Positions 1 through 32,749 of a stretch of 39,689 bases of DNA are shown piece after piece. Position numbers and translations under genes: made by a program. This stretch comes from a virus. The notes under the pieces were generated by a model that was not told the DNA's origin, did not search any database, and worked only from the letters and a program-made list of their open reading frames with translations. Where the stretch lies: IMG/VR virus record IMGVR_UViG_3300046490_000025. One strand, 5' to 3'. The first letter of the stretch is position 1. Every line of letters begins with the position of its first letter.

Positions 1-127
1 AAAGCCGTCTTCGCCATCCTGGCAATGGTCCACGCTGTCGCCTTTGGATAGTATAGGGTTAATCATTTGTATACTCCTGAATAATTGCATCGGCTGGTGC
101 GTATTCGTAAAACACCATTTCCCTCAC
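1..127. repeat. Terminal overlap, copy 1; identical to 39563..39689 (circular or terminally redundant genome signature)
   Basis: Direct comparison: aaagccgtcttcgccatcctgg...caccatttccctcac is present at both window ends, 127 nt, no mismatch seen. Confidence 0.9.
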
Positions 128-283
128 TTGTTCAATAGTAAACTGCATTTGAAAATTCGTCTTTACATATTCTATCTGAACAAGTGCCTCAATCAGTGGT
201 TTTGTCTTTTTTTCGTAATCAACTCTAAGCCTATTAAGTTCTTCTTCAAAATACCGTTTATGTAATTCTATCTGGTCGATCAT
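59..283 (-). CDS. Hypothetical small protein (74 aa, helical/coiled-coil composition)
   Basis: ORF track; AGAGGG SD-like sequence upstream of the ATG at 283; same strand and tight packing with neighbours. Confidence 0.55.
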   Translation of the reverse strand: MIDQIELHKRYFEEELNRLRVDYEKKTKPLIEALVQIEYVKTNFQMQFTIEQVREMVFYEYAPADAIIQEYTND

Positions 284-326
284 CTTGATACCCTCTTTTG
301 TTGTTTATACAAGTTGTTTTTAAATC

Positions 327-466
327 GACTCAAGGGTTCGGGCCGGACGCTAACCCGGCAAGCTTGCTGGCCTTACCTGGTATAAGGCCCAACCTTTCGG
401 TTTGCCGCAAGCCCCGCGCTGGTACCGCGGGCGTTCTGCGATTCCACGCCGCCGAACCCTTCAATC
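327..466. other. GC-rich structured element bounded by a 10-bp perfect (15-bp imperfect) inverted repeat; candidate ncRNA or MITE-like insert
   Basis: aagggttcgg (332..341) and ccgaaccctt (452..461) are perfect complements. Internal hairpins are gccgg/ccggc, ggcctta/taaggcc and cccgcg/cgcggg. Two 7-nt loops share CTGGTA (UACCAG on the minus strand), and there is an AACC-GAAA-GGUU tetraloop hairpin. GC content is far above both flanks. Confidence 0.5.
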
Positions 467-781
467 AATCGGTGCAATCCAACGGCGTTTGGGAAAAACG
501 AACTGCCTGTAAAGTTCATCTGTTTTGTCCCTATGCACTTCGTATTTGTCGGCAATCTCGCCGCGTTCTACCTTAGTTTTAAACTCCTTTTCCTGCCTGT
601 ATTTGTTGCACTTCAGGCAGACTACCACGCCGCCTTTTTTGGATGATGCGTACCTTTCCGCCGCTTCCACCATGCCATCCGAGAATGCCGAACGTGGAAG
701 GTAAACCGACTCACCGGCCATTACGCTGCACATCCCGCAGCGCACAAGGCCGGTTTCGTTGATGTAGGTTACTTTTTTCAT
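461..781 (-). CDS. Hypothetical protein with CxxC...CxxC zinc-ribbon-like motif (106 aa)
   Basis: ORF track; RCGMC and CLKC pairs in the translation; 4-nt overlap with the upstream gene stop. Confidence 0.55.
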   Translation of the reverse strand: MKKVTYINETGLVRCGMCSVMAGESVYLPRSAFSDGMVEAAERYASSKKGGVVVCLKCNKYRQEKEFKTKVERGEIADKYEVHRDKTDELYRQFVFPKRRWIAPID

Positions 782-1548
782 ATCCGGTCATGGGTTTGAT
801 CGTAGTCGCATGATGTTGACATCCTCCGCACTATCTCATCCCGGTACTTGATCGCCATTTCCAGCCTGGATATGAGTTTGGCTATGTCTTCGGAGTTCGC
901 TTCTATAAGGGCTATGTGTAGCCGGTGCGCGGGGTTTTTGAAGCGGTCGTCCCATGAGACAAAATGCCAATGCGGTGCGCCGGTTATCAGGCACAAGGAT
1001 TGGACTTGCCAGTAGTAGTCTGGCGCAATGGACTTCAAACTTTCCGCATCGTAAATACCCATATAATCAACATGAGTAGCAGAATTTGGAGCCTTCACTT
1101 CCACACCTGAATTTTCGGATGGTATCAGGCAATCCGGCGACCCGCCAAAGTCCGGCCCAAGCTCTAGGAATTTCTGGTTTAACCCGTAGTCAGTGCATAC
1201 CAGACCTGTCCTTTCCATGAACGCATCCAATGCCGGTACTTCCTGCTCCAATCCACGCGACATGGCTGGGCTTGTATACCCTTCGTCTGTTTGCGGTAGG
1301 CAAAGCCGCTGGATTGCAACATCTTTGATGTAGGTCTTCGCCCCCGCGCTAAGTTCACCGACCACCTTGCCGTTGGTCATCAGCTTGTGGGCATTACTGG
1401 CAGTAAAGTGCGCCCACCTGGCCCTTAGCCAAGAATTTCTTATTTCCTCAGAAGTTTGTATTTTCTCCCCAACTGTTGCAGTATAAAGAGCCGGTGTTTC
1501 CGATTCTATGTTGAATGTGTCAAAAAGGTTTTTTGTTAAATCGTTCAT
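778..1548 (-). CDS. YqaJ-like (lambda Exo-type, PD-(D/E)XK) recombination exonuclease
   Basis: Translation has WLRARWAHFTASNAHKLM, SRGLEQE, GGSPDCL and GVEVKAP motifs typical of YqaJ viral recombinase exonucleases. A strong AAGGAG SD lies 8 nt upstream of the ATG at 1548. Confidence 0.8.
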   Translation of the reverse strand: MNDLTKNLFDTFNIESETPALYTATVGEKIQTSEEIRNSWLRARWAHFTASNAHKLMTNGKVVGELSAGAKTYIKDVAIQRLCLPQTDEGYTSPAMSRGLEQEVPALDAFMERTGLVCTDYGLNQKFLELGPDFGGSPDCLIPSENSGVEVKAPNSATHVDYMGIYDAESLKSIAPDYYWQVQSLCLITGAPHWHFVSWDDRFKNPAHRLHIALIEANSEDIAKLISRLEMAIKYRDEIVRRMSTSCDYDQTHDRI

Positions 1549-2255
1549 TCGCTGTCTCCTTTGAAGATGTCTAGTTGGTTTTTGTGTAGTTCTTGTTTTT
1601 TAGATACAAAATAATTATTATGTGAAATTTTCATTTTATTTCTAAATTCATTATCATTCCATAAATCCTTAGTTATTTGTTTTCTTCTTTCTAATAGAAT
1701 AGGATTAGACTGTGCTATTTTGTGGGCACAATTCATTCTTTTTCTCATTTCAGTGTCTTTCATTGCTTCCTTAGTAGACTCTCCAACTTTCTTCTTTAAT
1801 TCAGGATTGGAATATGCTTTTTTTATTGAATCTATAACCTTAGATTTATAATCAATATTACCCCATCTTTCTTTTGAAGATAAAGATACTTTACCCTTTG
1901 TAATTGGATTGTTAAGAGATTTTTTAAGTCTTTCAACTTGTTCATTAGTATATTTATATCCGCTAGTACCTTCACCGCCATTTGTCAAGTTAGCCAGTTT
2001 TACACCCATCCTCCTTAACACTTCTATCATTTCAACTTCAAGCATAAGAGCGTGACTTTCATCTTTGCATGGTAAAACCCTGATTATGATATTTTCCGCA
2101 CCATACTTTTTTATTATATTTAAGTGATAATGTTTTCTTTGGCTTTGTGATAAGTTATATGCCCTATCATATTTACCCTTACCGACATAGAAAATACCAT
2201 GCACGTCTGTAGTGCCGGGTCTTGCATGGGTGTAAACGTAGAATTGTGTTGCCAT
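1545..2255 (-). CDS. GIY-YIG homing endonuclease with NUMOD3-like C-terminal DNA-binding repeats
   Basis: FYVYTH...GIFYVGKGKYDR...NLTNGGEG (GIY-YIG core), then repeated NPxxxxK(V/I)xxSxKExW-type modules. Strongly AT-rich compared with its neighbours. I place the start at the ATG at 2255; the track start at 2267 is TTG. Confidence 0.8.
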   Translation of the reverse strand: MATQFYVYTHARPGTTDVHGIFYVGKGKYDRAYNLSQSQRKHYHLNIIKKYGAENIIIRVLPCKDESHALMLEVEMIEVLRRMGVKLANLTNGGEGTSGYKYTNEQVERLKKSLNNPITKGKVSLSSKERWGNIDYKSKVIDSIKKAYSNPELKKKVGESTKEAMKDTEMRKRMNCAHKIAQSNPILLERRKQITKDLWNDNEFRNKMKISHNNYFVSKKQELHKNQLDIFKGDSE

Positions 2256-2364
2256 TTGAGTATCCAAGTAGTGTTATTTATCCATGGAAAGGTGATGCGA
2301 ACACTGGGCTGGATAAGACCCACCAAGATCATGACTCTTGGATTGTGTTCGCATGTACATTATA

Positions 2365-2517
2365 TCACATTTTCAATCTCAACTCGGCCCGCACATCCGC
2401 CGCCGTAGGTATCTTCGGACCGACCTCGGCCATATAGAGTGCTGGCATCTCGCTGTTGACCATGCCCGCCATAAATGACTCGCTCAAGTTGGTTGTTTCT
2501 TGTGTTGGTTTGTCCAT
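2365..2517 (-). pseudogene. Orphaned 5-prime fragment (50 codons) of the resident exonuclease gene, cut off by the GIY-YIG cassette
   Basis: My translation is MDKPTQETTNLSESFMAGMVNSEMPALYMAEVGPKIPTAADVRAELRLKM. Residues SEMPALYMAEVGPKIPTAADVR align with SETPALYTATVGEKIQTSEEIR of the 778..1548 ORF (14 of 22 identical). It starts directly after the stop of the upstream gene (TAGATG). Confidence 0.6.
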
Positions 2518-2724
2518 CTATAATCTCCGAGCTTTCAGACCTAGCAAAATCAAAGTATCGACAAGTACATCCGCAGGGTGTTTTTCGTTGAAATTGAATG
2601 CTTCATCAGAATCATCATTTCCGTCGATATAGGCATATACCTGGTCGTTGTCAACCCATACAGTACCAACAAACTCGCCAGAGTTTGCGGCTTGCACAAT
2701 TTCTTCAATAGATTTGTAAAGCAT
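2518..2724 (-). CDS. Hypothetical protein (68 aa, acidic)
   Basis: ORF track; same strand and tightly packed. Confidence 0.55.
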   Translation of the reverse strand: MLYKSIEEIVQAANSGEFVGTVWVDNDQVYAYIDGNDDSDEAFNFNEKHPADVLVDTLILLGLKARRL

Positions 2725-2829
2725 ATTGATTGAATCCCGTTTTTTGAGTTAATCCCGTGGTGGACTCTCGGGCTGGCTGGGATTAGGCCACAGGGTTTAT
2801 AACGTCCTGCTTGTCCGAGAGTGGTTGGT

Positions 2830-2838
2830 ATTATACCA
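2830..2838 (-). promoter_or_regulatory. Extended -10 element (TGGTATAAT) directly after the stop of 2839..3321
   Basis: The reverse complement of ...attatacca reads TGGTATAAT. No good -35. It is followed by an 8-bp closed stem (2764..2771 / 2815..2822). Confidence 0.25.
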
Positions 2839-3321
2839 TTACTGGCTTGATACTATCAAAGGCAATATGTCGAAGACCTTGCTTTTAAAGGCGTTCGTGC
2901 TGTTCTTCTTTTCGCCCCTGTAGATTATGACAACAGGTGTCAACCTGCTTGCGGGTATTATCTCGCCGCGCTGGATTGCATCCTTGACGTTTGCCACCAG
3001 TATCCGGCTGGCATTAAACAGCCGCCTTATTGCCCCGTCTTCTGTCTGAGCGACAAACAAGACGGATTCCAAATCCTTCAATTCGCCGCTCTCCATATCG
3101 GGCATGGTGACAAACCCGATACCCAAAACCCAACCGCGTATGGACTCGCCAACCTCAAGCGGTTGCCAATAGGTTATGTTCATCGGTATCGGAGCCGACT
3201 TAGCCACTGCCAGCGATGGGAGTTCAGCCCCGCCGTGGAGTGCGCTCCCCGCTATCTGCTCGGGGGTGAACCTTGCGGCCTGTGCCGTTGGTGCCTCTGT
3301 TTTTGCTATTTCGTTTTTCAT
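2839..3321 (-). CDS. Hypothetical protein (160 aa)
   Basis: ORF track; sits in the recombination/early block. Confidence 0.6.
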   Translation of the reverse strand: MKNEIAKTEAPTAQAARFTPEQIAGSALHGGAELPSLAVAKSAPIPMNITYWQPLEVGESIRGWVLGIGFVTMPDMESGELKDLESVLFVAQTEDGAIRRLFNASRILVANVKDAIQRGEIIPASRLTPVVIIYRGEKKNSTNAFKSKVFDILPLIVSSQ

Positions 3322-3366
3322 CTTCGTTGTTTCCCATGTGAAAGGGCATCCCTGCCCGTGGTTGGT

Positions 3367-4452
3367 TTATTTGTTAATTTTAAGTTCAAGTTCAACAGCA
3401 AGGTCGCCCCTGCCCATATGGTATGCAAGCATGAGTTTGTTTTCGATGGGAGTGTCCTTTGCCTGAATCTCTGCCAGACGTTGCCTTAAATTCGCCATCC
3501 GTTGCCTTAAATTCTCGTTCCGCTCGGCTTGCGCCTTGGCATCGGCTTTCGCCTTGGCCTCGGATTCCTGCCTTGCCTGGAGGTTCTCGGCTTCAATCCG
3601 TGCGGCCTCGTCACGTTGGGCCTTGAGTTCGTTTTTGTACTTTTCACAATCCAGCCTCATGCGCTCGGCATCTGCTTCCCGTTGCGCTTGGAGTTCAGCG
3701 TCCTGCTTTGCCCGCTCTGCCTGTAGCCGTTCGCGCTCGGCCCGCGCTTCATCTTCGGCCTTGGCGCGTTCCGCCTGTTCGGCTTGCAGCTTGGCGAGTT
3801 CGGCCCGGTCGGCTTCAATTTGCGCCTGTTGCTCGGCTTGGATTCGCGCCAGCTCCACGCGCTCTGCCTCAAGCCGCGCCTGTTCCTGTTCGTGCGCGAT
3901 TGCCTTGCCGAGCATGGTTTCCATCGTCGCCACGCACTCTGCTTGCGCCTGTTTCGCCATGCCCGCGTAAAGGCCGAAACTTTCAATATCATCAATGTCG
4001 AACGCCATGGTTTCAAGTTCCTCGCTGATTCTAGCCGACGAACACCCGATGAACCGGGAAGGCCAATTCCTGATTTCCGCTATCCGCTTCTGTATTTCAT
4101 CCGCCGCCGCCCGCTCGGCTTCCTCCTTCGCCTTGCGCTCGGCTTCCTTGCGGGCTTCCTCCGCTTTGATCTGCGAGTCGATGGGGTCTTCCAGTTCCTC
4201 AAGCGCAAGGGTGATGCGCTTTGCCTCTCCGTCAATCAAACGGCCCTTTTCCAGCACATCGGCCTTGAGTTCCTTCCTCAACTTTTCAAGATCGGTGCGG
4301 TATCCCCTGATTTCGGCCCGCGCTGCCTTGGCATCAGCCATGCCCTTGGTATTGTCCACCTGGAAGACCACGCCCTTGTAACGCCCGCCAAGTTCCGCCA
4401 ATGCCGCCGCCGTTGGCCTGTATTCGATTATCTGTAGTTCGTTTTTGACCAT
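3367..4452 (-). CDS. Coiled-coil protein (361 aa), possibly DUF1351-like
   Basis: The N-terminal region is globular. The centre and C-terminal part are a long E/A/R/K/Q-rich heptad-like tract (AERAKAEDEARAERERLQAERAKQDAELQAQREADAER). The family call is recognition only. Confidence 0.6.
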   Translation of the reverse strand: MVKNELQIIEYRPTAAALAELGGRYKGVVFQVDNTKGMADAKAARAEIRGYRTDLEKLRKELKADVLEKGRLIDGEAKRITLALEELEDPIDSQIKAEEARKEAERKAKEEAERAAADEIQKRIAEIRNWPSRFIGCSSARISEELETMAFDIDDIESFGLYAGMAKQAQAECVATMETMLGKAIAHEQEQARLEAERVELARIQAEQQAQIEADRAELAKLQAEQAERAKAEDEARAERERLQAERAKQDAELQAQREADAERMRLDCEKYKNELKAQRDEAARIEAENLQARQESEAKAKADAKAQAERNENLRQRMANLRQRLAEIQAKDTPIENKLMLAYHMGRGDLAVELELKINK

Positions 4453-4474
4453 TTTGATTGTTTCCTATGTTGAT

Positions 4475-4681
4475 TTATGAAAAATAAGCCATTGACCTAA
4501 CTTCCCATAGTGCGCCAGGTATTTCCGGCCCGGTGCTTTTACAATGTGCAAAGTCCCCTATGTCTGTCAAAACAGAATTAAGCCGTTCGACTTCATCCGC
4601 CAAGTCAATCCCGCATTTTTGCATTTTGCACTTTGCCGCAAGCTGCTTTTCTTTGGCTTGCCGGATGGTTTTGGACCTCAT
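4475..4681 (-). CDS. Hypothetical protein (68 aa)
   Basis: ORF track; abuts 4682..4873. Confidence 0.45.
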   Translation of the reverse strand: MRSKTIRQAKEKQLAAKCKMQKCGIDLADEVERLNSVLTDIGDFAHCKSTGPEIPGALWEVRSMAYFS

Positions 4682-4873
4682 CTAAAGTCCCCTGTTGTGC
4701 GCGGTTTCCCGCGCTTCGAGTTCGCCCCATTGGCGTTCGATGTACCAGTCCTCCATCTGCCTGGTTTCTTTGGCCTCGTCTTCTAGGTAGTCTGTTTCGA
4801 GGCTTATTAGCCTGGGATGGATGAACCCTTGCGGGTTTTTCTTGGTCTTGACTGTCTTTCGCTGTGCGATCAT
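4682..4873 (-). CDS. Hypothetical protein (63 aa)
   Basis: ORF track; competes with the overlapping ORF 4605..4901, but this frame packs end to end with its neighbours. Confidence 0.45.
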   Translation of the reverse strand: MIAQRKTVKTKKNPQGFIHPRLISLETDYLEDEAKETRQMEDWYIERQWGELEARETAHNRGL

Positions 4874-4946
4874 AATCGTTTCTCTGTTGATGTTCGGTCA
4901 TACGGAACAGGCAAGGGGGTCGATTCCACCCGCCCCCCGAGCCACC

Positions 4947-5318
4947 TTATTTGGGCATCGTTTCCCGCTTCAACTCCTTTTCCGCCCATGCATGGGCCGC
5001 TTTCTCCATGATCTTGGTCATCACCTTCCCGGCATAGAAGTCATATTCACGAGGCCGCGCCATGTTGCGCACCTCGTTAATGCGCTCCCATGCCCCGTCC
5101 AATTCCGCGTAATCCTCGGTATCCTCAAGTGCGACCGAGAAGGGAGTCTGTTTAAAATATTGCTCCTTAAGTTCCCCCAGCCTATCCTCCGCCCATGCCT
5201 CATATTCAGCCGTCTGGTCAAGCTCGGAATAGTGCCGTGCCGTGTCAGCTAGAACCGGGCATTTCTTCATCGGCCTTAAAATCCCGTCACGCGCCATGCT
5301 GTCAAATAACTCTTTCAT
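4947..5318 (-). CDS. Hypothetical protein (123 aa, acidic)
   Basis: ORF track. Confidence 0.6.
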   Translation of the reverse strand: MKELFDSMARDGILRPMKKCPVLADTARHYSELDQTAEYEAWAEDRLGELKEQYFKQTPFSVALEDTEDYAELDGAWERINEVRNMARPREYDFYAGKVMTKIMEKAAHAWAEKELKRETMPK

Positions 5319-5327
5319 TTCGCCACC

Positions 5328-5429
5328 TCATTTTATGTAGTTTAAAATTTGCACGGCAAGGTAAAATTCCCATGCCCATGCGCCTAGGATAATCAACCCA
5401 ACGGCAATCAATGCCGCGTTTTTAGCCAT
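5328..5429 (-). CDS. Possible small single-pass membrane peptide (33 aa)
   Basis: My translation is MAKNAALIAVGLIILGAWAWEFYLAVQILNYIK. It is below the track cut-off. It lies just downstream of the 5453..5481 promoter. Confidence 0.3.
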   Translation of the reverse strand: MAKNAALIAVGLIILGAWAWEFYLAVQILNYIK

Positions 5430-5452
5430 GTCAATTACCCATTTTTGTGTCA

Positions 5453-5481
5453 ATTTTATATCATATTGATATATCAGTCAA
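5453..5481 (-). promoter_or_regulatory. Sigma70-type promoter with a palindromic operator in the spacer
   Basis: The minus strand reads TTGACT - 17 nt - TAAAAT. The spacer contains the 7+7 palindrome TATATCA-nnn-TGATATA. Confidence 0.45.
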
Positions 5482-5662
5482 CAGAAAAAGTTAAATCTTT
5501 CGGCAGGTTCACGCCAAACCCGGAATTGATTATCCCGAGTCCCTCGACGTTTTCAAGGGTGACTTGCCTTATCCGGTTGGCGGTAATCCAAAGGATAACC
5601 CTGTCGGCCTCGACGTTGGTCAGCGTCGCCATAAAGTCTTTAAATGCTGTTTGTGCTTTCAT
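5474..5662 (-). CDS. Hypothetical protein (62 aa)
   Basis: ORF track; 4-nt overlap with the upstream gene. Confidence 0.5.
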   Translation of the reverse strand: MKAQTAFKDFMATLTNVEADRVILWITANRIRQVTLENVEGLGIINSGFGVNLPKDLTFSVD

Positions 5663-6057
5663 AATATTTCATTCTCCATTTCAGGGAACCCATGAAAAGT
5701 TTCAACACTCCTTCCATTATCTATCAAGCCCATGACAAAAGACTTTAACCCGTTTAACACGTAGCCATCCATTAAATCATAGTTAAATCGTTCCTTCGTT
5801 TCATCTTCTAAAATGACGAAGGTTTTTACCGCGTCATCCTGCCCGCCGCCTCCGAACAATCCGGGTGCGTAGTCCGATTGGTATGAACTACCAGCTATCA
5901 ATACTGGTATGCTGTACGATTCAACTGACTCTCCTAGATAGTCGGTTTTTTCAAGTGACTTAAAATCCCACTTGTAGGTGTTGGTCCATCCACTACCAGT
6001 ATAGAGTCTGCCAGTTTTCGTTCTTGTAGCTAGTATTTTTTTCATAGTATTATCCAT
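5659..6057 (-). CDS. Hypothetical protein (132 aa), AT-rich accessory gene
   Basis: ORF track; lower GC than the surrounding genome. Confidence 0.6.
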   Translation of the reverse strand: MDNTMKKILATRTKTGRLYTGSGWTNTYKWDFKSLEKTDYLGESVESYSIPVLIAGSSYQSDYAPGLFGGGGQDDAVKTFVILEDETKERFNYDLMDGYVLNGLKSFVMGLIDNGRSVETFHGFPEMENEIL

Positions 6058-6334
6058 TCACCATTTTAGTTACAAAACTTCTTATTTCCTCTCCTGAGCA
6101 TAGTTTTACATATCCTAACTTAAAAGAGTTGTCAGCCCATTTTCTTCCCTCATCCCTTTGTGAAACCATATTCACATCTCTAGTTTGTTCCAAAATATAA
6201 TCGCTCCATTTTCCCTTGAATAGTCCATTTACCTCTTCTACCAGTTCATCCATATTTATTGGGCGTAATAGAGGCGCTGACAATGCCTTTTTTTCCTGCG
6301 ATTTTATAAATCTATTTCTTTTTGCTGCGTTCAT
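6050..6334 (-). CDS. Hypothetical protein (94 aa), AT-rich accessory gene
   Basis: ORF track; its ATG at 6334 is preceded by the conserved leader GGAGATAGCGAAA. Confidence 0.6.
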   Translation of the reverse strand: MNAAKRNRFIKSQEKKALSAPLLRPINMDELVEEVNGLFKGKWSDYILEQTRDVNMVSQRDEGRKWADNSFKLGYVKLCSGEEIRSFVTKMVNG

Positions 6335-6530
6335 TTTCGCTATCTCCGGTTGGTTGCTGGTTCCCTTGTTCCCTCTCCCTATCCTTGGCCCGGTCTATCC
6401 TCTTGCGAACCCAAGCCGAGCCGCCGAGTAATCGAAGCTTGTCGGCTTGCCCCTGCGTGAGCCGTATCTGCTCGGTCACGTTCCACTCGACATGGGGTCT
6501 GCCGCGTGGATTGCCTGTTGGTTTGGTCAT
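6312..6530 (-). CDS. Small basic protein, ribbon-helix-helix-like (72 aa)
   Basis: GRPHVEWNVTEQIRLTQGQADKLRLLGGSAWVRKRIDRA resembles the strand-helix-helix pattern of RHH/CopG-type regulators. Recognition only. Confidence 0.45.
   Translation of the reverse strand: MTKPTGNPRGRPHVEWNVTEQIRLTQGQADKLRLLGGSAWVRKRIDRAKDREREQGNQQPTGDSENERSKKK
6327..6370. repeat. 44-bp direct repeat, copy 1 (translation-initiation leader)
   Basis: gcgttcattttcgctatctccggttggttgctggttcccttgtt versus copy 2 at 6736..6779: 2 mismatches. Confidence 0.85.
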
Positions 6531-27956: not shown

Positions 27957-28134
27957 CGTCTTTGTCGGCCTTGTCCAACGCCTCATGCTCCCGGATGTAG
28001 GCAATCGCGCACTCGATAGTTATTCCTACGTCCCCCGGTTTTGGCGAATCTTCAAAGTCCCTGGCCCCTCGCCGGTATTCGTTCAATCGGGTAAGGTTTA
28101 CGATGATCTTTTCAGGTGTCATCGGAGTGTTCAT
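27946..28134 (-). CDS. Hypothetical protein (62 aa)
   Basis: ORF track. Confidence 0.5.
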   Translation of the reverse strand: MNTPMTPEKIIVNLTRLNEYRRGARDFEDSPKPGDVGITIECAIAYIREHEALDKADKDDGK

Positions 28135-29666
28135 TGCCAGCCCGCGTGGGAATAGCCCATGATGTCAGCGGCAAACAATGCTTTCTCAAGTGCCGATTGA
28201 AAGGCAGTGGTGTCCGCTTTTTCCAACACAACGGCAAGCCGCGCCTCCAAATCTTCCGGGCTTTTAGCCGCCAACACAGCCGACTTGATCGCCGCCGATT
28301 CTATCGGGCTTTTCATGTGCAAAAGCATCTCGTCGGCCAGTTTCTCGATTGCCATTTGTTCCGGCGTGAACTTGGTTTTATCGCCAGCGGAAAGGCAGAC
28401 ATGGCCAGCGCTTAACCCTGTTGGCTGTCCTGGTTGAGTCGTTGCCGGTGCGCTTGGATCCGATTGCGCCGCTTTCAAAACCGCCTCGCCCGCCTCGGCT
28501 TGCGGTATCTTCAGCTTGTCATGCACCCATTTTTCCGGTATCTGCATTCCAGCGGAAACCAGCAACGGGAGTGCCGTTGAAAACCGGGTGATGTCCTCGC
28601 CCACGTCCGTGTCAAAGACAAAGCGCGGTAGCCGCATTGCCAGCCCGTTGACTTGGATGATGGCCCCGAAAAGCTGGCTTGTCAGTGTCGCGGCGATCTG
28701 CTTCGCATCGTGGTCGCGGATAAGCATACGGCTATCGTCATGCACCTTGCCGAGCGCATTGGTAGAAGTCGCCCCGTCCGCCTGGCTTGTCAAAGTGCCG
28801 CCGAGTATCGCTTTCGACATAGACTTTTCGGCCCATGTCACTAAAGCCTCGAACCCCTGCCCTTCGCCAGCGGTCAGCGGTATCGTCCGTAAATCCTCCC
28901 CGCTTGCCCCATCAAATAAAGCCGCCCCGCTTGCGCCCAAGTCTTTCAATGCTTGCAACAATTCCCGCCGCATCGATTCGTCTTTCTCGGTGTGGAACAA
29001 TGCCCTCATCGGTACGCCGTAAAGTTCGCAGAACCTGAGCCAGTTCCGCACGGCAAAATTCTTAAAAAGATAGGGCAAGGCCAAAATACGGTAAATTCCG
29101 TTGGTAGCCGGGTAGCCAGTTTTGCTGGAATGCTCGTGCACTATCCATCCAAACTGCTGCAACTCCTGCCCGTTTACATCGTCTGGAACCCGCAAGCGAA
29201 TATTAAGCCTGGTCTCCCTGTCCACGGTGAACCAACGATGCGGCCTTGGGTAGAGTTTTCGAGGTAGCCACAAGGTTCCGTCTTTGGCCCATTCGATTTC
29301 CTGGCAACCGAAACCATGCCCGATACTGTCTCCCATGTCGAAGATGACGGTACTCATGTCCACCATGTCGGCAACCAACTTGCCCAAATCGCCCGCCGCC
29401 TTGCGCTCCCGTGCGCCCGCGTCGCCGGACGGAACCAACGCCCAGTCAAGTTTGGATACCGCCATCCGCCGCTTTTGCATCTCGGCGAAAATATGCGAGT
29501 CGCGTTCCTCCATGTCAGTGAACAGTTCGGCTTGTGCGGTCAACTGCCCGAACTCGGCTTGACGCAGCAAGTCCAGAACCTCCTTTACCCCGCTCATGGG
29601 GTGGTGGACTTGAAACTCCCTCTCAAGCATGTTGGTCGTTTCGGTTTGGAGCGATATGGGTTTCAA
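28131..29666 (-). CDS. Portal protein (DUF935 / Mu gp29-like)
   Basis: Supported by size, by position after TerL, and by the motif FTDMEERDSHIFAEMQKRRMAV. The track start is TTG at 29666; an ATG at 29630 is an alternative. Confidence 0.8.
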   Translation of the reverse strand: MKPISLQTETTNMLEREFQVHHPMSGVKEVLDLLRQAEFGQLTAQAELFTDMEERDSHIFAEMQKRRMAVSKLDWALVPSGDAGARERKAAGDLGKLVADMVDMSTVIFDMGDSIGHGFGCQEIEWAKDGTLWLPRKLYPRPHRWFTVDRETRLNIRLRVPDDVNGQELQQFGWIVHEHSSKTGYPATNGIYRILALPYLFKNFAVRNWLRFCELYGVPMRALFHTEKDESMRRELLQALKDLGASGAALFDGASGEDLRTIPLTAGEGQGFEALVTWAEKSMSKAILGGTLTSQADGATSTNALGKVHDDSRMLIRDHDAKQIAATLTSQLFGAIIQVNGLAMRLPRFVFDTDVGEDITRFSTALPLLVSAGMQIPEKWVHDKLKIPQAEAGEAVLKAAQSDPSAPATTQPGQPTGLSAGHVCLSAGDKTKFTPEQMAIEKLADEMLLHMKSPIESAAIKSAVLAAKSPEDLEARLAVVLEKADTTAFQSALEKALFAADIMGYSHAGWQ

Positions 29667-29817
29667 AGCAGTCTGCCTTTTTTAAGGTCAAGGTAAATAG
29701 TTCGTGCGGTGCGCTTCCCGTGCCTCAACACAAGCCCGTTTTGCTCGGCGGATAGCACGGTGTGAAGGGCTAATTGTTCGGCTTTGCGTCGTAGTTTCTT
29801 TGCGGTTTTAAGGTTCA
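29665..29817 (-). CDS. Possible small basic protein (50 aa) between TerL and the portal
   Basis: My translation is MNLKTAKKLRRKAEQLALHTVLSAEQNGLVLRHGKRTARTIYLDLKKGRLL. It fills the TerL-portal gap exactly. Confidence 0.35.
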
Positions 29818-29820
29818 TAT

Positions 29821-32073
29821 TCACCACGCAATTTGTTGAGACGGCAAAGGGGTTATCGACTGCCTAGCAGTGCCGCCGCGCTTCATGATGGGAGACAATG
29901 CGTACCGGCAATTATGCACAAGAATCCCACCAGCCACGAACTCATGAACCCCTTCAATAGCCAAGTCATAAACCGGAGACTTTTCTGTTATTGCGCAAAC
30001 TGACTCCACACGAACGGGAACAAGTTTTGGCCCTTGAGTATTTGTTGATGATAAAGTTGACCCCGCAAATAGGGCATGGTCTGTTTTCATCATCGACACC
30101 TGATGCTCTTCTCCAAGCAGATTTACAGGAATTGCTGCAAAATCTATCTGTATGCCCTGATTGCCTTGTAAGGAATACATCTCCGCATTGATCGCATTTC
30201 CGTGCGATTGGGATAAATGATTGTCTACCAAGCGGCCCAATTTTCCGATGAAACTCCAAACCTTCCGGGCTTGAATGCCATTCCTTTGTAAGCGGTCTAA
30301 TCCTTTCGCAGTGTTCCCTCTGTTTTTGTGCGCGTTCATCATTCCAATGTTTGTGAATATGTTGCTTTGCTGTGATGCACTCAAGGTTGATTGGGTCGTT
30401 GTTTGAAGCGTCTCCGTCCTTGTGGTGGACATGATGGCCCTTTGGAATTTCTCCAAAATTGTCCTTGTAAATCTCACGGTGAAGGAATAAAGGATTCCCT
30501 TTTGTTTTTGATCTCCTAAAATAAATCCTTGTAGAACGTTCATGATGTTCTGGATAGCGTCTGTAAATAAATCCTTTGTATTCAACTGTTTCAACTTGCA
30601 TAGTTCATCCCCGGTATAAGTTAGAATCCAATCATTATACCGTATAGCATCCATTCTTACAAAGCCTTTCCCGACAACAAAAACTTCATGATCGCCCGTG
30701 GCTTTCAATGATTTGTCTCCTGCCTTTATCTCCCATAAACCCCTGCTTGGTGATGTCTGGCATGATTTTAAAACCTTGTTCCATCCATCTCGGGTTAAAA
30801 CCATGTCGCCTACAATCACTGACTCTATCGGAATATTCCCGCGTTTTGTTGTAACCAATGACCCCTCGGCAATGCAAGCGTCTATAGTGTGGTTATTCCG
30901 GTCGTCAATTTTGTTGGTCACTTCCCCGCTCTGCCTGTCCACTTTGTAAGAGTAAAGCCTTGCCTCTTCCGCCATGTGTACGCACCTCGGGTGAATCACG
31001 ATATTTTCAAAGCTCCGCAAAAACGCTATTCCCTCTTCCACCGAACCATGCCCCTTTTCCGCCGCCCGTATTTTAAAGCCCTGCCGCTTGATGTAGCTTA
31101 TCGTCTCCGGCCTTGCCGAGTCTGCCAGTATTAGGTGTTCCCGAACGCCCGGAACCTTATCGAACAAAGCCGGTGTGTGGTCAAGTTCCACGCCCACGCC
31201 CCAAGCCTCATGCTCCACATAAAGCCTCCGCTCGAATATCCAGCACTTTACCAGCGCGGTAGGGTCTTGCGAGAACCCCCAATCGGCACCGAAGTAAGGC
31301 CCGTCCCAAAGGTCGCCCGGTTCAAACCATTCTATGCTGGTTTTCCCGTGCAATATTTGCGCGTCCGAATGTGTCCTGCACTCCCCAAGCCACACATGCG
31401 CGTATGCGTCCGGGTCTGTCTTGCGCATCCATTCCATTTCCTCACGGAGCGAAGTCTCTCCAAACCACGGATTTTCCCGGTAGTTCACCCGCCTGATAAT
31501 CGCATTCGGTGGAGGGTTTGAAACTAGTTTGTACAGCGGGTCGTCTGCCAAGTTCGGGTTCATCGTTGCCCAAATCTCCGCGCCAGCTTTGCGCATGGTC
31601 GGTGTCAAAGTCTGCCAGCTTTTAAACCCCACCATCTGCCCTTCCTCAATCCAGCAAACATCCACGCCCTCAAGGCTTTTCAAGCCAGCCGCGTCGCCGC
31701 TCAATCCCCGCAATCCTTTGAACAGAAACTCGCTCCCAACTTTAGACCTTATTTTCTGCTCCTGCACGATAAAGGCATGACTCAAACCCATGTCCTTTAC
31801 TTGGTCTGATAGCAGTTGGTGAACGCTGTCTTGAATGCTGTTTTGAAGTTCCCTTGCGCACAGTATCCGCAATGGCCTTGCCGCCGCTTTCAAAAGCAGC
31901 ATCCTGGCGAATGTCCAAGACTTCGACGAACCACGGCCTCCCCATGCGATCTTGTACCGCGCCGGTTGCAGGAAGTCCCGCGCCCATTCCGGCAGTTGGG
32001 CTTTATTGGGCAAGCCCTGCCCCGGCTCTTTGAACGGCAATGCCCTTGCCTGGTATCTTGATAAACAACTCAC
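29821..32073 (-). CDS. terL: Terminase large subunit precursor containing an intein
   Basis: Walker A is GGRGSSKS and Walker B is VDVCWIEE. Nuclease motifs are GADWGFSQD, ILADSARP and DDRNNHTIDA-[intein]-CRYAL. The start is GTG. Confidence 0.9.
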   Translation of the reverse strand: MSCLSRYQARALPFKEPGQGLPNKAQLPEWARDFLQPARYKIAWGGRGSSKSWTFARMLLLKAAARPLRILCARELQNSIQDSVHQLLSDQVKDMGLSHAFIVQEQKIRSKVGSEFLFKGLRGLSGDAAGLKSLEGVDVCWIEEGQMVGFKSWQTLTPTMRKAGAEIWATMNPNLADDPLYKLVSNPPPNAIIRRVNYRENPWFGETSLREEMEWMRKTDPDAYAHVWLGECRTHSDAQILHGKTSIEWFEPGDLWDGPYFGADWGFSQDPTALVKCWIFERRLYVEHEAWGVGVELDHTPALFDKVPGVREHLILADSARPETISYIKRQGFKIRAAEKGHGSVEEGIAFLRSFENIVIHPRCVHMAEEARLYSYKVDRQSGEVTNKIDDRNNHTIDACIAEGSLVTTKRGNIPIESVIVGDMVLTRDGWNKVLKSCQTSPSRGLWEIKAGDKSLKATGDHEVFVVGKGFVRMDAIRYNDWILTYTGDELCKLKQLNTKDLFTDAIQNIMNVLQGFILGDQKQKGILYSFTVRFTRTILEKFQRAIMSTTRTETLQTTTQSTLSASQQSNIFTNIGMMNAHKNRGNTAKGLDRLQRNGIQARKVWSFIGKLGRLVDNHLSQSHGNAINAEMYSLQGNQGIQIDFAAIPVNLLGEEHQVSMMKTDHALFAGSTLSSTNTQGPKLVPVRVESVCAITEKSPVYDLAIEGVHEFVAGGILVHNCRYALSPIMKRGGTARQSITPLPSQQIAW
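29911..30876 (-). mobile_element. Intein (322 codons) inserted in the TerL nuclease DA-xRY motif
   Basis: The first residue is Cys (CIAEGSLV). Block B is KATGDHEVF. Blocks F/G are VYDLAIEGVHEFVAGGILVHN, followed by Cys+1. Codons were checked at 30874..30876 (TGC), 29911..29913 (AAT) and 29908..29910 (TGC). Confidence 0.85.
29966..30601 (-). CDS. HNH homing endonuclease (211 aa) encoded in an alternative frame inside the intein
   Basis: LHREIYKDNFGEIPKGHHVHHKDGDASNNDPINLECITAKQHIHKH is an HNH_3-type core. There are two CxxCG...FCSxxC / CSRSC zinc-ribbon modules. The ATG is preceded by GGGGA and by an in-frame TGA one codon upstream. The frame is offset 2 nt from TerL. Confidence 0.85.
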   Translation of the reverse strand: MQVETVEYKGFIYRRYPEHHERSTRIYFRRSKTKGNPLFLHREIYKDNFGEIPKGHHVHHKDGDASNNDPINLECITAKQHIHKHWNDERAQKQREHCERIRPLTKEWHSSPEGLEFHRKIGPLGRQSFIPIARKCDQCGDVFLTRQSGHTDRFCSNSCKSAWRRASGVDDENRPCPICGVNFIINKYSRAKTCSRSCGVSLRNNRKVSGL

Positions 32074-32749
32074 CCTCTCGGAACAAGTGCCTTATGGTTT
32101 CGTATCCTTTGGCGGTAATGACAGGCACGGAAAACTGCTTGCCGTTGACAATCTCGGCCCGCTGCCTCATGTACCCACGGTCCACCGCCCATGCCGTGGC
32201 CTCGTTGGACACCTTCATCATCCATCGGTTGTCCTGTAGCCACTTCCTGAACTCGGCAAGCTTGATAGACCTGTTGAACAATTCCTTATGCACCGTTCCT
32301 ATGTGCCTTTCGCATTCGTGGGTTGCAACCTCTTCCATGAATTGCAATGCCGGTTGGGCCGCATCAAGTTCCGCCTCTGCCCGGTCGGCCCTATCGGCCT
32401 CGGCTATCACCATCAAAGCCAGTTGGCGATTATCGGGAAGGGCGGATTGCCTTGCCCTTGCCATGTCAAAGAACTCTTTGACAAGCCGCTTTTTGAATGA
32501 CCGTACAATATCACTATTGCGCATGTAGGTCATAATCAACGTGGCTTGCTCTTGGTTCATCAATGCATACTCGGTAGGTCTTCCCCCTGTACTTTCGGAT
32601 TTTAAATCCAGAAGTCCAAACTCTTCCAAATCTGTTTGATAAGTACGAACCAGCTTAATAACGCTAGCATGGTCATTATCTGTGCCATTGGCTATGGCGA
32701 TTGAAGTTGTTACAAGTGTATTGTTTTGGATTGTTACGATGCTCATCAT
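32003..32749 (-). CDS. Rha-family regulator with a KilAC/antirepressor-type C-terminal domain
   Basis: The N-terminal part is TSIAIANGTDNDHASVIKLVRTYQTDLEEFG...GGRPTEYALMNQEQATLIM. The C-terminal part is WAVDRGYMRQRAEIVNGKQFSVPVITAKGYETI. Confidence 0.75.
   Translation of the reverse strand: MMSIVTIQNNTLVTTSIAIANGTDNDHASVIKLVRTYQTDLEEFGLLDLKSESTGGRPTEYALMNQEQATLIMTYMRNSDIVRSFKKRLVKEFFDMARARQSALPDNRQLALMVIAEADRADRAEAELDAAQPALQFMEEVATHECERHIGTVHKELFNRSIKLAEFRKWLQDNRWMMKVSNEATAWAVDRGYMRQRAEIVNGKQFSVPVITAKGYETIRHLFREGELFIKIPGKGIAVQRAGAGLAQ

Follow-up and report, generated by a model that had tools for sequence, protein, structure and literature searches.

The terminase large subunit gene (terL) in the window, the whole 39,689-nucleotide (nt) stretch of viral DNA analysed here (IMG/VR record IMGVR_UViG_3300046490_000025), probably carries a composite mobile element at the IDA/CRY site of this essential gene. 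The element consists of a class-1 intein and of a homing-endonuclease gene of the HNH type nested within the intein out of frame. In the mechanism proposed here, ribosomes would read terL through the entire cassette to give, in this order, the N-extein, the Hint-N part of the intein, an unstructured linker of ~190 amino acids, the Hint-C part and the C-extein. The two Hint halves would fold around the linker, splice it out and restore the terminase. Shifted back by one nucleotide (frame -1/+2), the cassette DNA would also encode an HNH_3 enzyme of 24 kDa that bears two zinc ribbons. Its synthesis would be independent, starting at an ATG of its own behind a Shine-Dalgarno (SD) sequence and probably driven by a separate promoter within the intein-N coding sequence. 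This enzyme may nick or cut the intein-less terL of co-infecting phages or prophages near the insertion site, and repair would then copy the whole cassette, a process known as homing. All features discussed are on the minus strand, and coordinates are window positions.

The TerL precursor open reading frame (ORF; 29821..32073) has 750 codons counted from a GTG and is uninterrupted across the intein. The Joint Genome Institute (JGI) gene call for it, P0121, 'phage terminase large subunit', has 730 amino acids, which implies a start at the TTG of codon 21 (position 32013); this TTG is likely to be the true start of TerL. The translation matches the Pfam models Terminase_3 (3e-35), Terminase_3C (1e-15), Intein_splicing (1.5e-11; 44.8 bits, cut-off 35.8) and Hint_2 (1.8e-5; 25.6 bits, which is under the cut-off of that model). 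The N-extein (30877..32073, amino acids 1-399, GC content 54%) contains the ATPase and most of the RNase H-like nuclease domain and ends in ...NNHTIDA; AlphaFold2 models it with a predicted local distance difference test score (pLDDT) of 85-95. The intein (29911..30876) comprises 322 residues, TerL amino acids 400-721, and reads CIAEG...TGDH...VYDLAIEGVHEFVAGGILVHN/C. Its position 1 nucleophile is Cys400 of CIAEG, which is kept in at least 90% of the alignment called A2, the TxxH motif of block B is present as KATGDHEVF in the TerL translation, and the C-terminus, ...GILVHN, is followed by Cys+1 of the extein (GILVHN/CRYAL). The N-terminal splicing (Hint) region (30607..30876, amino acids 400-489) is modelled with a pLDDT of 80-92, and the C-terminal splicing region (29911..30033, amino acids 681-721), which holds blocks F and G, with 82-92. 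The C-extein and the stop codon (29821..29910, amino acids 722-750) begin with CRYALSPIMKRGG..., and its residues R723 and Y724 are invariant in alignment A2.

The intein-less allele P0129 reads ...HNHLIDA/ARYALEPIMQRG (DA/ARYAL) where the window has ...NNHTIDA, the intein and CRYALSPIMKRGG; the P0129-type sequence around the insertion point is ...ATCGACGCC/GCGCGCTAC.... Comparison of these junctions places the insertion in a conserved motif of the nuclease domain, 29 codons from the end of terL. From the intact splicing residues and the essential role of TerL we infer that protein splicing would restore the terminase. The TerL-frame linker between the two splicing regions (30034..30606, amino acids 490-680) is free of stop codons and has no recognisable fold: it has no Pfam match at E<=10 and no PHROG match, and in the model of the full TerL its pLDDT is about 25, compared with 80-95 for the exteins and both Hint segments. 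This linker is the passenger translation of the HNH gene. A group I or group II intron was considered for the insert and rejected, as no Rfam family is found in the window at the gathering threshold and Hint blocks in the TerL frame flank the nested ORF.

The nested gene (29966..30601) encodes 211 amino acids and is offset by +2 (= -1) from the TerL frame; its start lies 1472 nt from that of TerL, which is 2 modulo 3. The product matches HNH_3 (PF13392) at 6.6e-14 (51.7 bits, cut-off 24.8) and phrog_15471, 'HNH endonuclease', at 8e-34. HNH_3 is the only Pfam family matched at E<=0.1, and there is no match to PF01844. The HNH_3 catalytic core (30359..30487, amino acids 39-81) reads LHREIY...GHHVHHKDGDASNNDPINLE...H. 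A total of 132 HNH homologues were gathered, and residue conservation was read from an alignment of 47 of them at 34-55% identity, in which H41, H60, N68, H81 and H85 are invariant. Two zinc ribbons follow the core. In the first (30125..30196; C136-x2-C139 ... C155-x3-C159) all four cysteines are invariant, and in the second (30008..30076; C176-x2-C179 ... C194-x3-C198) C176, C179 and C198 are invariant, and at least 90% of the aligned homologues retain C194. In a fold search the C-terminal modules look similar to small zinc ribbons, the first of them giving YacG/FCS-like matches. Modelled with its homologue alignments, the HNH-frame protein reaches a mean pLDDT of 95. The best fold match in the PDB is the homing endonuclease I-HmuI (1u3e); it is a weak one (E 0.07, probability 0.84, TM score 0.23-0.27) because the HNH model is elongated.

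Most of this outline had been drawn by an earlier analysis confined to the letters and their translations (the sequence-only reading). Its continuous TerL ORF with an intein at 29911..30876 is borne out by the ORF translation and the Pfam matches, the 211-residue ORF with an HNH core and two Cys4 modules by the HNH_3 match, the conserved residues and the offset, and its view that the TerL-frame linker lacks an endonuclease fold by the failed domain searches and the low pLDDT. It had also let the HNH ORF end three codons before block F, which is incorrect: the stop codon TGA (29966-29968) overlaps the Tyr-Asp codons of VYDL, so that the ORF enters the start of block F. The first ~22 codons of the C-terminal splicing region overlap the HNH C-terminus, and about 20 codons are truly dual-coding.

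The divergence of the cassette is well below that of the TerL sequence flanking it, which indicates a recent lateral transfer. When the window is compared with its relative L100 in 60-nt bins, identity climbs from ~70% to 85% in the bin where the intein begins and to 97% one bin further on. It drops again at the intein end, the stretch of intein-C and C-extein being about 24% diverged. The cassette as a whole is 9-10% diverged, with a synonymous divergence (dS) of 0.28 in intein-N, and the flanks are 24-25% diverged with a dS of 1.3-1.8. The dS of intein-N, which does not overlap the HNH gene, is four- to five-fold below that of the N-extein, and the common ancestor of the cassette would therefore be more recent than that of the host terL genes. 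The GC content is 42-44% in the cassette, 53-54% in the terL exteins and 50% in the whole window; the low value of the cassette, of which the sequence-only reading had already noted the part under the overlap, is consistent with a foreign origin.

The distribution of the insert among relatives can be compared with this signature. Many TerL relatives at 58-69% identity are proteins of 412-418 amino acids without the insert; alleles that lack the intein, at 64-69% identity, end at the insertion point, and most matches in the genome scan stop at residue 399. The genes that host nested cassettes are TerLs of different Pfam types (Terminase_3 and the T7-like Terminase_6N) and one portal gene of the Phage_portal_3 type. 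The similarity matrices of intein-N and HNH are correlated (Spearman 0.43-0.44, Mantel P about 0.002, with lineages that, as in the other permutation tests, are not fully independent), which is consistent with inheritance of the two as a unit.

Free-standing relatives of the HNH protein adjoin terL in PAE1 and CL2, where they lie between terL and the portal gene, and in Shemara, where the gene occupies the same place in antisense; in BP10 the free-standing gene is upstream of terS. These neighbourhoods could also speak for a protein that helps the terminase to cut concatemers, like the HNH proteins encoded beside the terminases of HK97-like cos phages, and zinc-ribbon HNH nickases near terminase genes may act in packaging (PMC3592412). 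A place inside terL would then do no more than tie the protein to the packaging module. Such a role is unlikely for the nested gene. Many close TerL relatives have neither the intein nor the HNH gene, so both are dispensable, the same cassette is found in an intein of a portal gene, and the cassette bears the signature of lateral transfer. The Pfam match, moreover, is to HNH_3, the I-HmuI type, and not to the short PF01844 type. Free-standing homing genes also sit beside their target gene, and the position of the relatives is the one expected of an intronless homing gene that targets the 3' end of terL. It suggests that a resident HNH gene next to terL could have invaded a nearby mini-intein.

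Frame-wise substitution counts support the view that protein-level selection within the overlap acts in the HNH frame, and that the TerL frame is selected there only against stop codons. In the Nei-Gojobori counts between the window and L100, the overlap is 9.7% diverged. Read in the TerL frame it has a dS of 0.078 and a ratio of non-synonymous to synonymous divergence (ω) of 1.42, and read in the HNH frame a dS of 0.217 and an ω of 0.36. The corresponding values are 24.6% divergence, a dS of 1.30 and an ω of 0.12 for the N-extein, and 9.2%, 0.28 and 0.18 for intein-N. The third position of the HNH codons takes 30 of the 61 differences in the overlap. A second pair, L003 and L006, has synonymous/non-synonymous counts in the host frame of 12/7 in intein-N and 7/1 in intein-C and the C-extein. 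Within the overlap this pair shows the same switch as the window and L100: the host frame counts 4/11 and includes radical changes, and the HNH frame counts 10/5. The sequence-only reading had proposed both this comparison of frames and the collection of terL homologues with and without the insert, and the outcome of each agrees with its interpretation.

The same counts bear on the proposal that the nested gene is a relic, that is, a decaying passenger in a vertically inherited mini-intein with a junk linker, its ORF open only because little time has passed. Some relatives are indeed decayed or partial, such as the remnant in Brochothrix phage BL3 and the degenerate segment in L008/L009, and an ω of 0.36 is not very low. 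Yet the HNH frame of the window is intact, its catalytic and zinc ligands are conserved across the 47 homologues, purifying selection in the HNH frame is seen in two independent pairs, the HNH model has a pLDDT of 95, and the cassette is much younger than the host gene. A relic is accordingly improbable.

As to the decayed copies themselves, only the C-terminal zinc-ribbon part of an HNH gene is left in phage BL3 (L018, NC_015254.1, 2196-2420). This part, 68% identical over 53 amino acids, lies across the terL end and gp3 and seems to be what remains of a lost HNH copy. The IMG/VR loci L008 and L009 have a longer nested ORF of 271 amino acids (in L008 the HNH-frame ORF is 2580-3395), in which an extra degenerate HNH-like segment lies upstream of the intact one; the extra segment may be a partial tandem duplication.

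Separate translation of the HNH protein from its own start is plausible from the signals that precede it. The start codon is an ATG (30599-30601), a TGA in the HNH frame stands one codon before it (30605-30607), and the SD-like sequence GGGGA (30608..30612) lies 6 nt upstream of it and is kept in L100; all three had been pointed out by the sequence-only reading, and their positions are confirmed. In most lineages an SD-like motif stands 5-9 nt before the nested start, examples being GGGGA in the window and L100, GGGAG, AGGAGA, AAGGAG, GGAGGG and AAAGGAG.

The evidence for a promoter of its own is suggestive. By matching to a sigma-70-like consensus, a candidate site TTGTAA-17-TATAAT was found at 30634..30662, its -10 element ending 32 nt before the HNH ATG. 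The motif is written in codons of Hint-N (F-V-R ... R-Y-N in the window); both signals of the nested gene, SD and promoter-like site, fall in the 3' part of the Hint-N coding region. Sites at the equivalent position are TTGTCA-17-TATAAT in L100, a perfect TTGACA-17-TATAAT in phiCDHM19 (L015), TTGACA-18-TACAAT in L010 and TTCACT-18-TATAAT in Highwayman (L012). Over 14 lineages, the highest promoter score within the 90 nt that precede the nested start has a mean of 8.64 out of 12, and composition-matched segments from the same cassettes have one of 6.57 (permutation P<2e-5 for enrichment); against the N-extein background the enrichment has P<5e-5 in 12 lineages.

These signals also stand against the idea that the nuclease is made by programmed -1 frameshifting from the TerL frame, which would give a fusion of TerL-N, intein-N and HNH instead of a free protein. 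The HNH frame is -1 relative to TerL in almost all lineages, as such a mechanism would have it, and published cases of hidden HNH genes are without a visible ribosome binding site. In the window, however, the HNH frame is closed by a stop one codon before the ATG, and the stretch from that stop to codon 40 of the ORF lacks a slippery X_XXY_YYZ heptamer; nor do the lineages share a conserved slippery site. With SD-like motifs and ATG or GTG starts in place, and with a different offset in the L010 lineage, frameshifting is very improbable.

The host frame is open over a length that calls for an explanation. The sequence-only reading had put the chance of this in random sequence at (61/64)^212, or about 4e-5, and had concluded that stops were purged by selection. 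The arithmetic is correct; a stricter null, in which the synonymous codons of the HNH ORF are permuted, gives a probability of 0.018 for the absence of TerL-frame stops in the window, and 0.04-0.1% or less for several relatives, and it is conservative because the codon pool has already been purged. The third frame of the overlap in the window contains 15 stops. Free-standing homologues (BP10, L002) and the split form (L016) have 6-14 stops in the frame equivalent to that of the host. A tblastn search with the HNH protein found homologues inside the annotated TerL genes of four phages, Acinetobacter phage Highwayman, Tetrasphaera phage TJE1, C. difficile phage phiCDHM19 and a Rhodobacteraceae phage, and in all four the distance from the start of the coding sequence to the start of the match is 2 modulo 3. 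A scan of the fetched loci for stop-free stretches found the host frame (HNH + 1) fully open, within ORFs of 700-1184 amino acids, in L001, L003-L009, L011, L012 (Highwayman), L014 (TJE1), L015 (phiCDHM19), L017, L021, L064, L085-L097, L100 and the window; the remaining frame of the scanned nested loci has 8-28 stops. These observations support the conclusion that the TerL frame is kept open by selection, rather than by chance or compensating indels, and the purging of stops proposed by the sequence-only reading stands.

The choice of offset may follow from the same economy. Under synonymous permutation an HNH gene is expected to produce 1-5 stops in frame +1 and 10-35 in frame +2; nearly all lineages thus use the host frame that costs least to keep free of stops. 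One lineage, L010 (IMGVR_UViG_3300035561_000076; HNH ORF 3581-4090, host TerL 1984-4278), has the other offset, with the host frame at HNH+2, and shows no host-frame stop where the permutation expects about 11, so that the alternative offset is possible but rare. L010 may owe its offset either to a separate capture or to indels that switched the frame.

Among the relatives compared, none has the HNH domain in frame with the host. A candidate for a natural in-frame fusion of TerL and HNH, P0158 (L101, JGI 3300003178, 2501-4620), was rejected, as a 1-nt indel in an otherwise ordinary copy of the cassette disrupts both genes. Through this indel, ~40 codons into the HNH ORF, TerL-N and intein-N are joined to the rest of HNH, and intein-C and the C-extein lose their frame. 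L101 also has a fragmented portal gene, and the state of this locus is due either to an assembly error or to a decaying prophage. The proposal that the layout of the window is an assembly or sequencing artefact, in which a pair of compensating indels displaced the HNH domain of an ordinary intein from the host frame, is scarcely credible, and compensating sequencing errors are excluded for practical purposes: L101 shows that such errors occur in metagenomes, but the same offset and stop-free host frame recur in >20 independent assemblies, including finished isolate genomes of four phage groups, the alignment of the window with L100 (81% identical) is free of indels over 1.8 kb, and the HNH ORF comes with a start codon (ATG), an SD and an upstream stop of its own.

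Several points weigh against the reading of the cassette as a mobile intein with a separately expressed nuclease. The selection and mobility figures for the window come from one close relative, L100, and the L003/L006 pair backs the selection result only. The ω of 0.36 in the HNH frame is only moderate. Dual-coding constraint, instead of recent transfer, could account for some of the low dS in the overlap; the dS of the non-overlapping intein-N, which is also low, counters this. The single promoter-like site of the window does not stand above shuffled sequence by itself, as shuffles give a mean of 2.1, and there is no such site in the GC-rich L021, the closest lineage beyond the L100/P0122 group. 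Finally, the overall Foldseek likeness of the elongated, multi-domain HNH model to I-HmuI is weak.

The cassette is widespread. Two host genes harbour it, in phages from at least three bacterial phyla (Proteobacteria, Firmicutes and Actinobacteria); one of these phages, Tetrasphaera phage TJE1, is an actinophage. Close relatives of the window came from the search with the TerL protein, among them P0122 at 85% identity. A metagenome scan with the HNH protein returned only relatives at <=48% identity. By megablast, TerL has no match among INPHARED phages, and a 7-kb region has none in complete E. coli genomes; neither collection contains a record nearly identical to the window. The nearest TerL relatives are found in gammaproteobacterial and other non-actinobacterial metagenome-assembled genomes.

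A probable change of host gene is seen in L064 (Asaia astilbis JCM 15831, NZ_BAJT01000024.1), where a distant cassette lies in an intein of a Phage_portal_3 portal gene. The host ORF is 4047-6350 and the HNH ORF 5153-5902; the HNH protein is 27% identical and has the same offset, which suggests a switch of extein. In L001/L089 (IMGVR_UViG_3300031965_000009, host ORF 1233-4787) a TerL of 1184 amino acids has two inteins, of which the first, near the ATPase P-loop, carries an ordinary in-frame LAGLIDADG domain and the second, at the nuclease motif, the out-of-frame HNH.

A split form of terL is found in Vibrio phage 1.245.O (L016, NC_055736.1 3732-9331, locus 1-3491) and also in phages 1.238.A/B. 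In L016 the ORF for TerL-N and intein-N stops 38 codons into the HNH homologue, which has 236 amino acids and three zinc ribbons, and the ORF for intein-C and the C-extein, annotated as 'hint domain protein', begins anew at GGAGGAAGCT-ATG, in frame with the N-terminal part. The locus resembles a split intein of natural origin whose gap is occupied by an HNH gene, and the split terL of the Vibrio phages looks derived from the nested state. The cassette is likely to have arisen when a free-standing HNH gene, from a family normally found beside terL, invaded a mini-intein; the Vibrio phages would represent an alternative outcome in which the same layout was broken into a split intein.

In the window, the longest TerL ORF overlaps an upstream ORF of 248 amino acids (32003..32749) by 71 nt, or by 11 nt if the TTG at 32013 is the start. 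Downstream, an ORF of 54 amino acids (29663..29827) overlaps the terL stop, and a Mu-type portal gene (28131..29666) comes next. The whole window is transcribed from the minus strand.

The origin of intein homing endonucleases and of split inteins are long-standing questions that have been argued mostly from a few unusual cases. Here three states of one nuclease family are found in comparable and partly cultivable phages, the cultivable ones including phages of Acinetobacter, C. difficile, Pseudomonas and Vibrio, which opens models of the 'splicing first, endonuclease invades later' kind to experiment. If the proposed reading is true, expression of the nested nuclease would be uncoupled in time from the late expression of the terminase, and the phages would provide a direct test system for the acquisition of homing endonucleases by inteins and for the origin of split inteins. 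The cassette is also a clean natural example of long (about 630 nt) dual coding on the same strand in which one frame is selected only against stops. It bears, too, on how 'hidden' endonucleases are expressed, since SD and promoter-like signals are visible here, unlike in the published cases. Gene callers miss nested genes, and annotated TerL proteins of ~700-800 amino acids are worth checking for them.

The sequence-only reading had known of no intein organised in this way, a claim that did not hold. The architecture is already published, for a different nuclease family. A survey of PhagesDB (bioRxiv 10.1101/2025.01.02.630785) describes actinophage TerL inteins with an endonuclease VII-like homing endonuclease in frame 3. 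These share with the window the TerL host, a nuclease gene on the same strand, between the splicing blocks and in frame 3 (+2), a stop-free host-frame linker without recognisable structure, and a proposed origin by invasion of a free-standing homing endonuclease with signs of continuing transfer. The frame offset is the same: when the Keitabear intein is translated, its frame 3 ORF matches Pfam Endonuclease_7 at 8.9e-20. The nuclease of the preprint, Endonuclease_7 (IPR004211 / PF02945), accounts for about 125 amino acids of a 265-residue intein; in the window HNH_3 and two zinc ribbons take up 211 of 322. That the two nucleases belong to one family was considered and rejected, as HNH_3 and Endonuclease_7 are different families and tblastn gave no cross-matches, no SEA-PHAGES actinophage being matched with the HNH protein of either the window or TJE1. 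Unlike the actinophage cases, the family of the window spans phages of Proteobacteria, Firmicutes and Actinobacteria, extends to a portal gene, and has visible SD and promoter-like signals.

Against the literature searched, what is new is the presence of the HNH_3 family in this architecture and its wider spread over at least three bacterial phyla and two host genes. Also new are the evidence for frame-specific selection and transfer, the candidate expression signals, the account of the offset by stop economy, and the relatives covering free-standing, nested and split states. In that literature no paper links inteins with the TerL genes of TJE1, phiCDHM19, phiCD119 or Highwayman. The fuller claim, that this is an undescribed cross-phylum intein/HNH_3 family with its own promoter and ribosome binding site in Hint-N, an offset set by stop economy, a full evolutionary series and a testable system, has in our estimate an even chance of being right.

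Other known systems share parts of the arrangement. The cyanobacterial dnaX intein, with an out-of-frame or antisense LAGLIDADG gene, goes back to 1998 (Gorbalenya 1998; bioRxiv 10.64898/2026.09.14.751524), and its ORF is called antisense in bioRxiv 10.1101/2025.01.02.630785. It resembles the window in having the endonuclease in a second frame, a low ω in the endonuclease frame with a relaxed extein frame, and a proposed invasion of a mini-intein; it differs in its LAGLIDADG enzyme and its cellular host gene. The ShiLan domain, an out-of-frame HNH within a phage DNA methylase (Arsenault et al. 2025, PMC11855218), is likewise an HNH gene hidden in a second frame of a host ORF that is free of stops, and its evolution is homing-like. 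It has no intein splicing domains, however, its insert is kept as a loop, and leaderless initiation has been proposed for it as no ribosome binding site is detectable. The packaging-associated HNH proteins of cos phages (HK97 gp74 type) are short, of the PF01844 type, encoded next to terS/cos and required for cutting by the terminase; the HNH of the window differs in its 211 amino acids, its zinc ribbons, its place inside an intein, and the existence of close TerL relatives without HNH. With I-HmuI, its best PDB fold match, it has in common the Pfam family HNH_3 and a modular build of catalytic core and DNA-binding modules. I-HmuI is intron-encoded and has other DNA-binding modules, and the two C-terminal Cys4 ribbons of the window protein have no solved counterpart in a homing enzyme.

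The fractured genes, in which split inteins flank a free-standing homing endonuclease gene (Dassa et al. 2009, PMC2677866), resemble the cassette in having an independently expressed endonuclease gene that lies between the intein halves and overlaps them, and in the model of invasion by a homing endonuclease gene. They differ in that the host frame of the window is unbroken and its intein, as judged from the sequence, is contiguous and cis-splicing; their endonucleases are GIY-YIG and Vsr-like and that of the window is HNH. The HNH relatives in the Vibrio phages have exactly the split form of Dassa et al., and a split intein with an HNH gene in its gap is the type which these authors had predicted and not observed.

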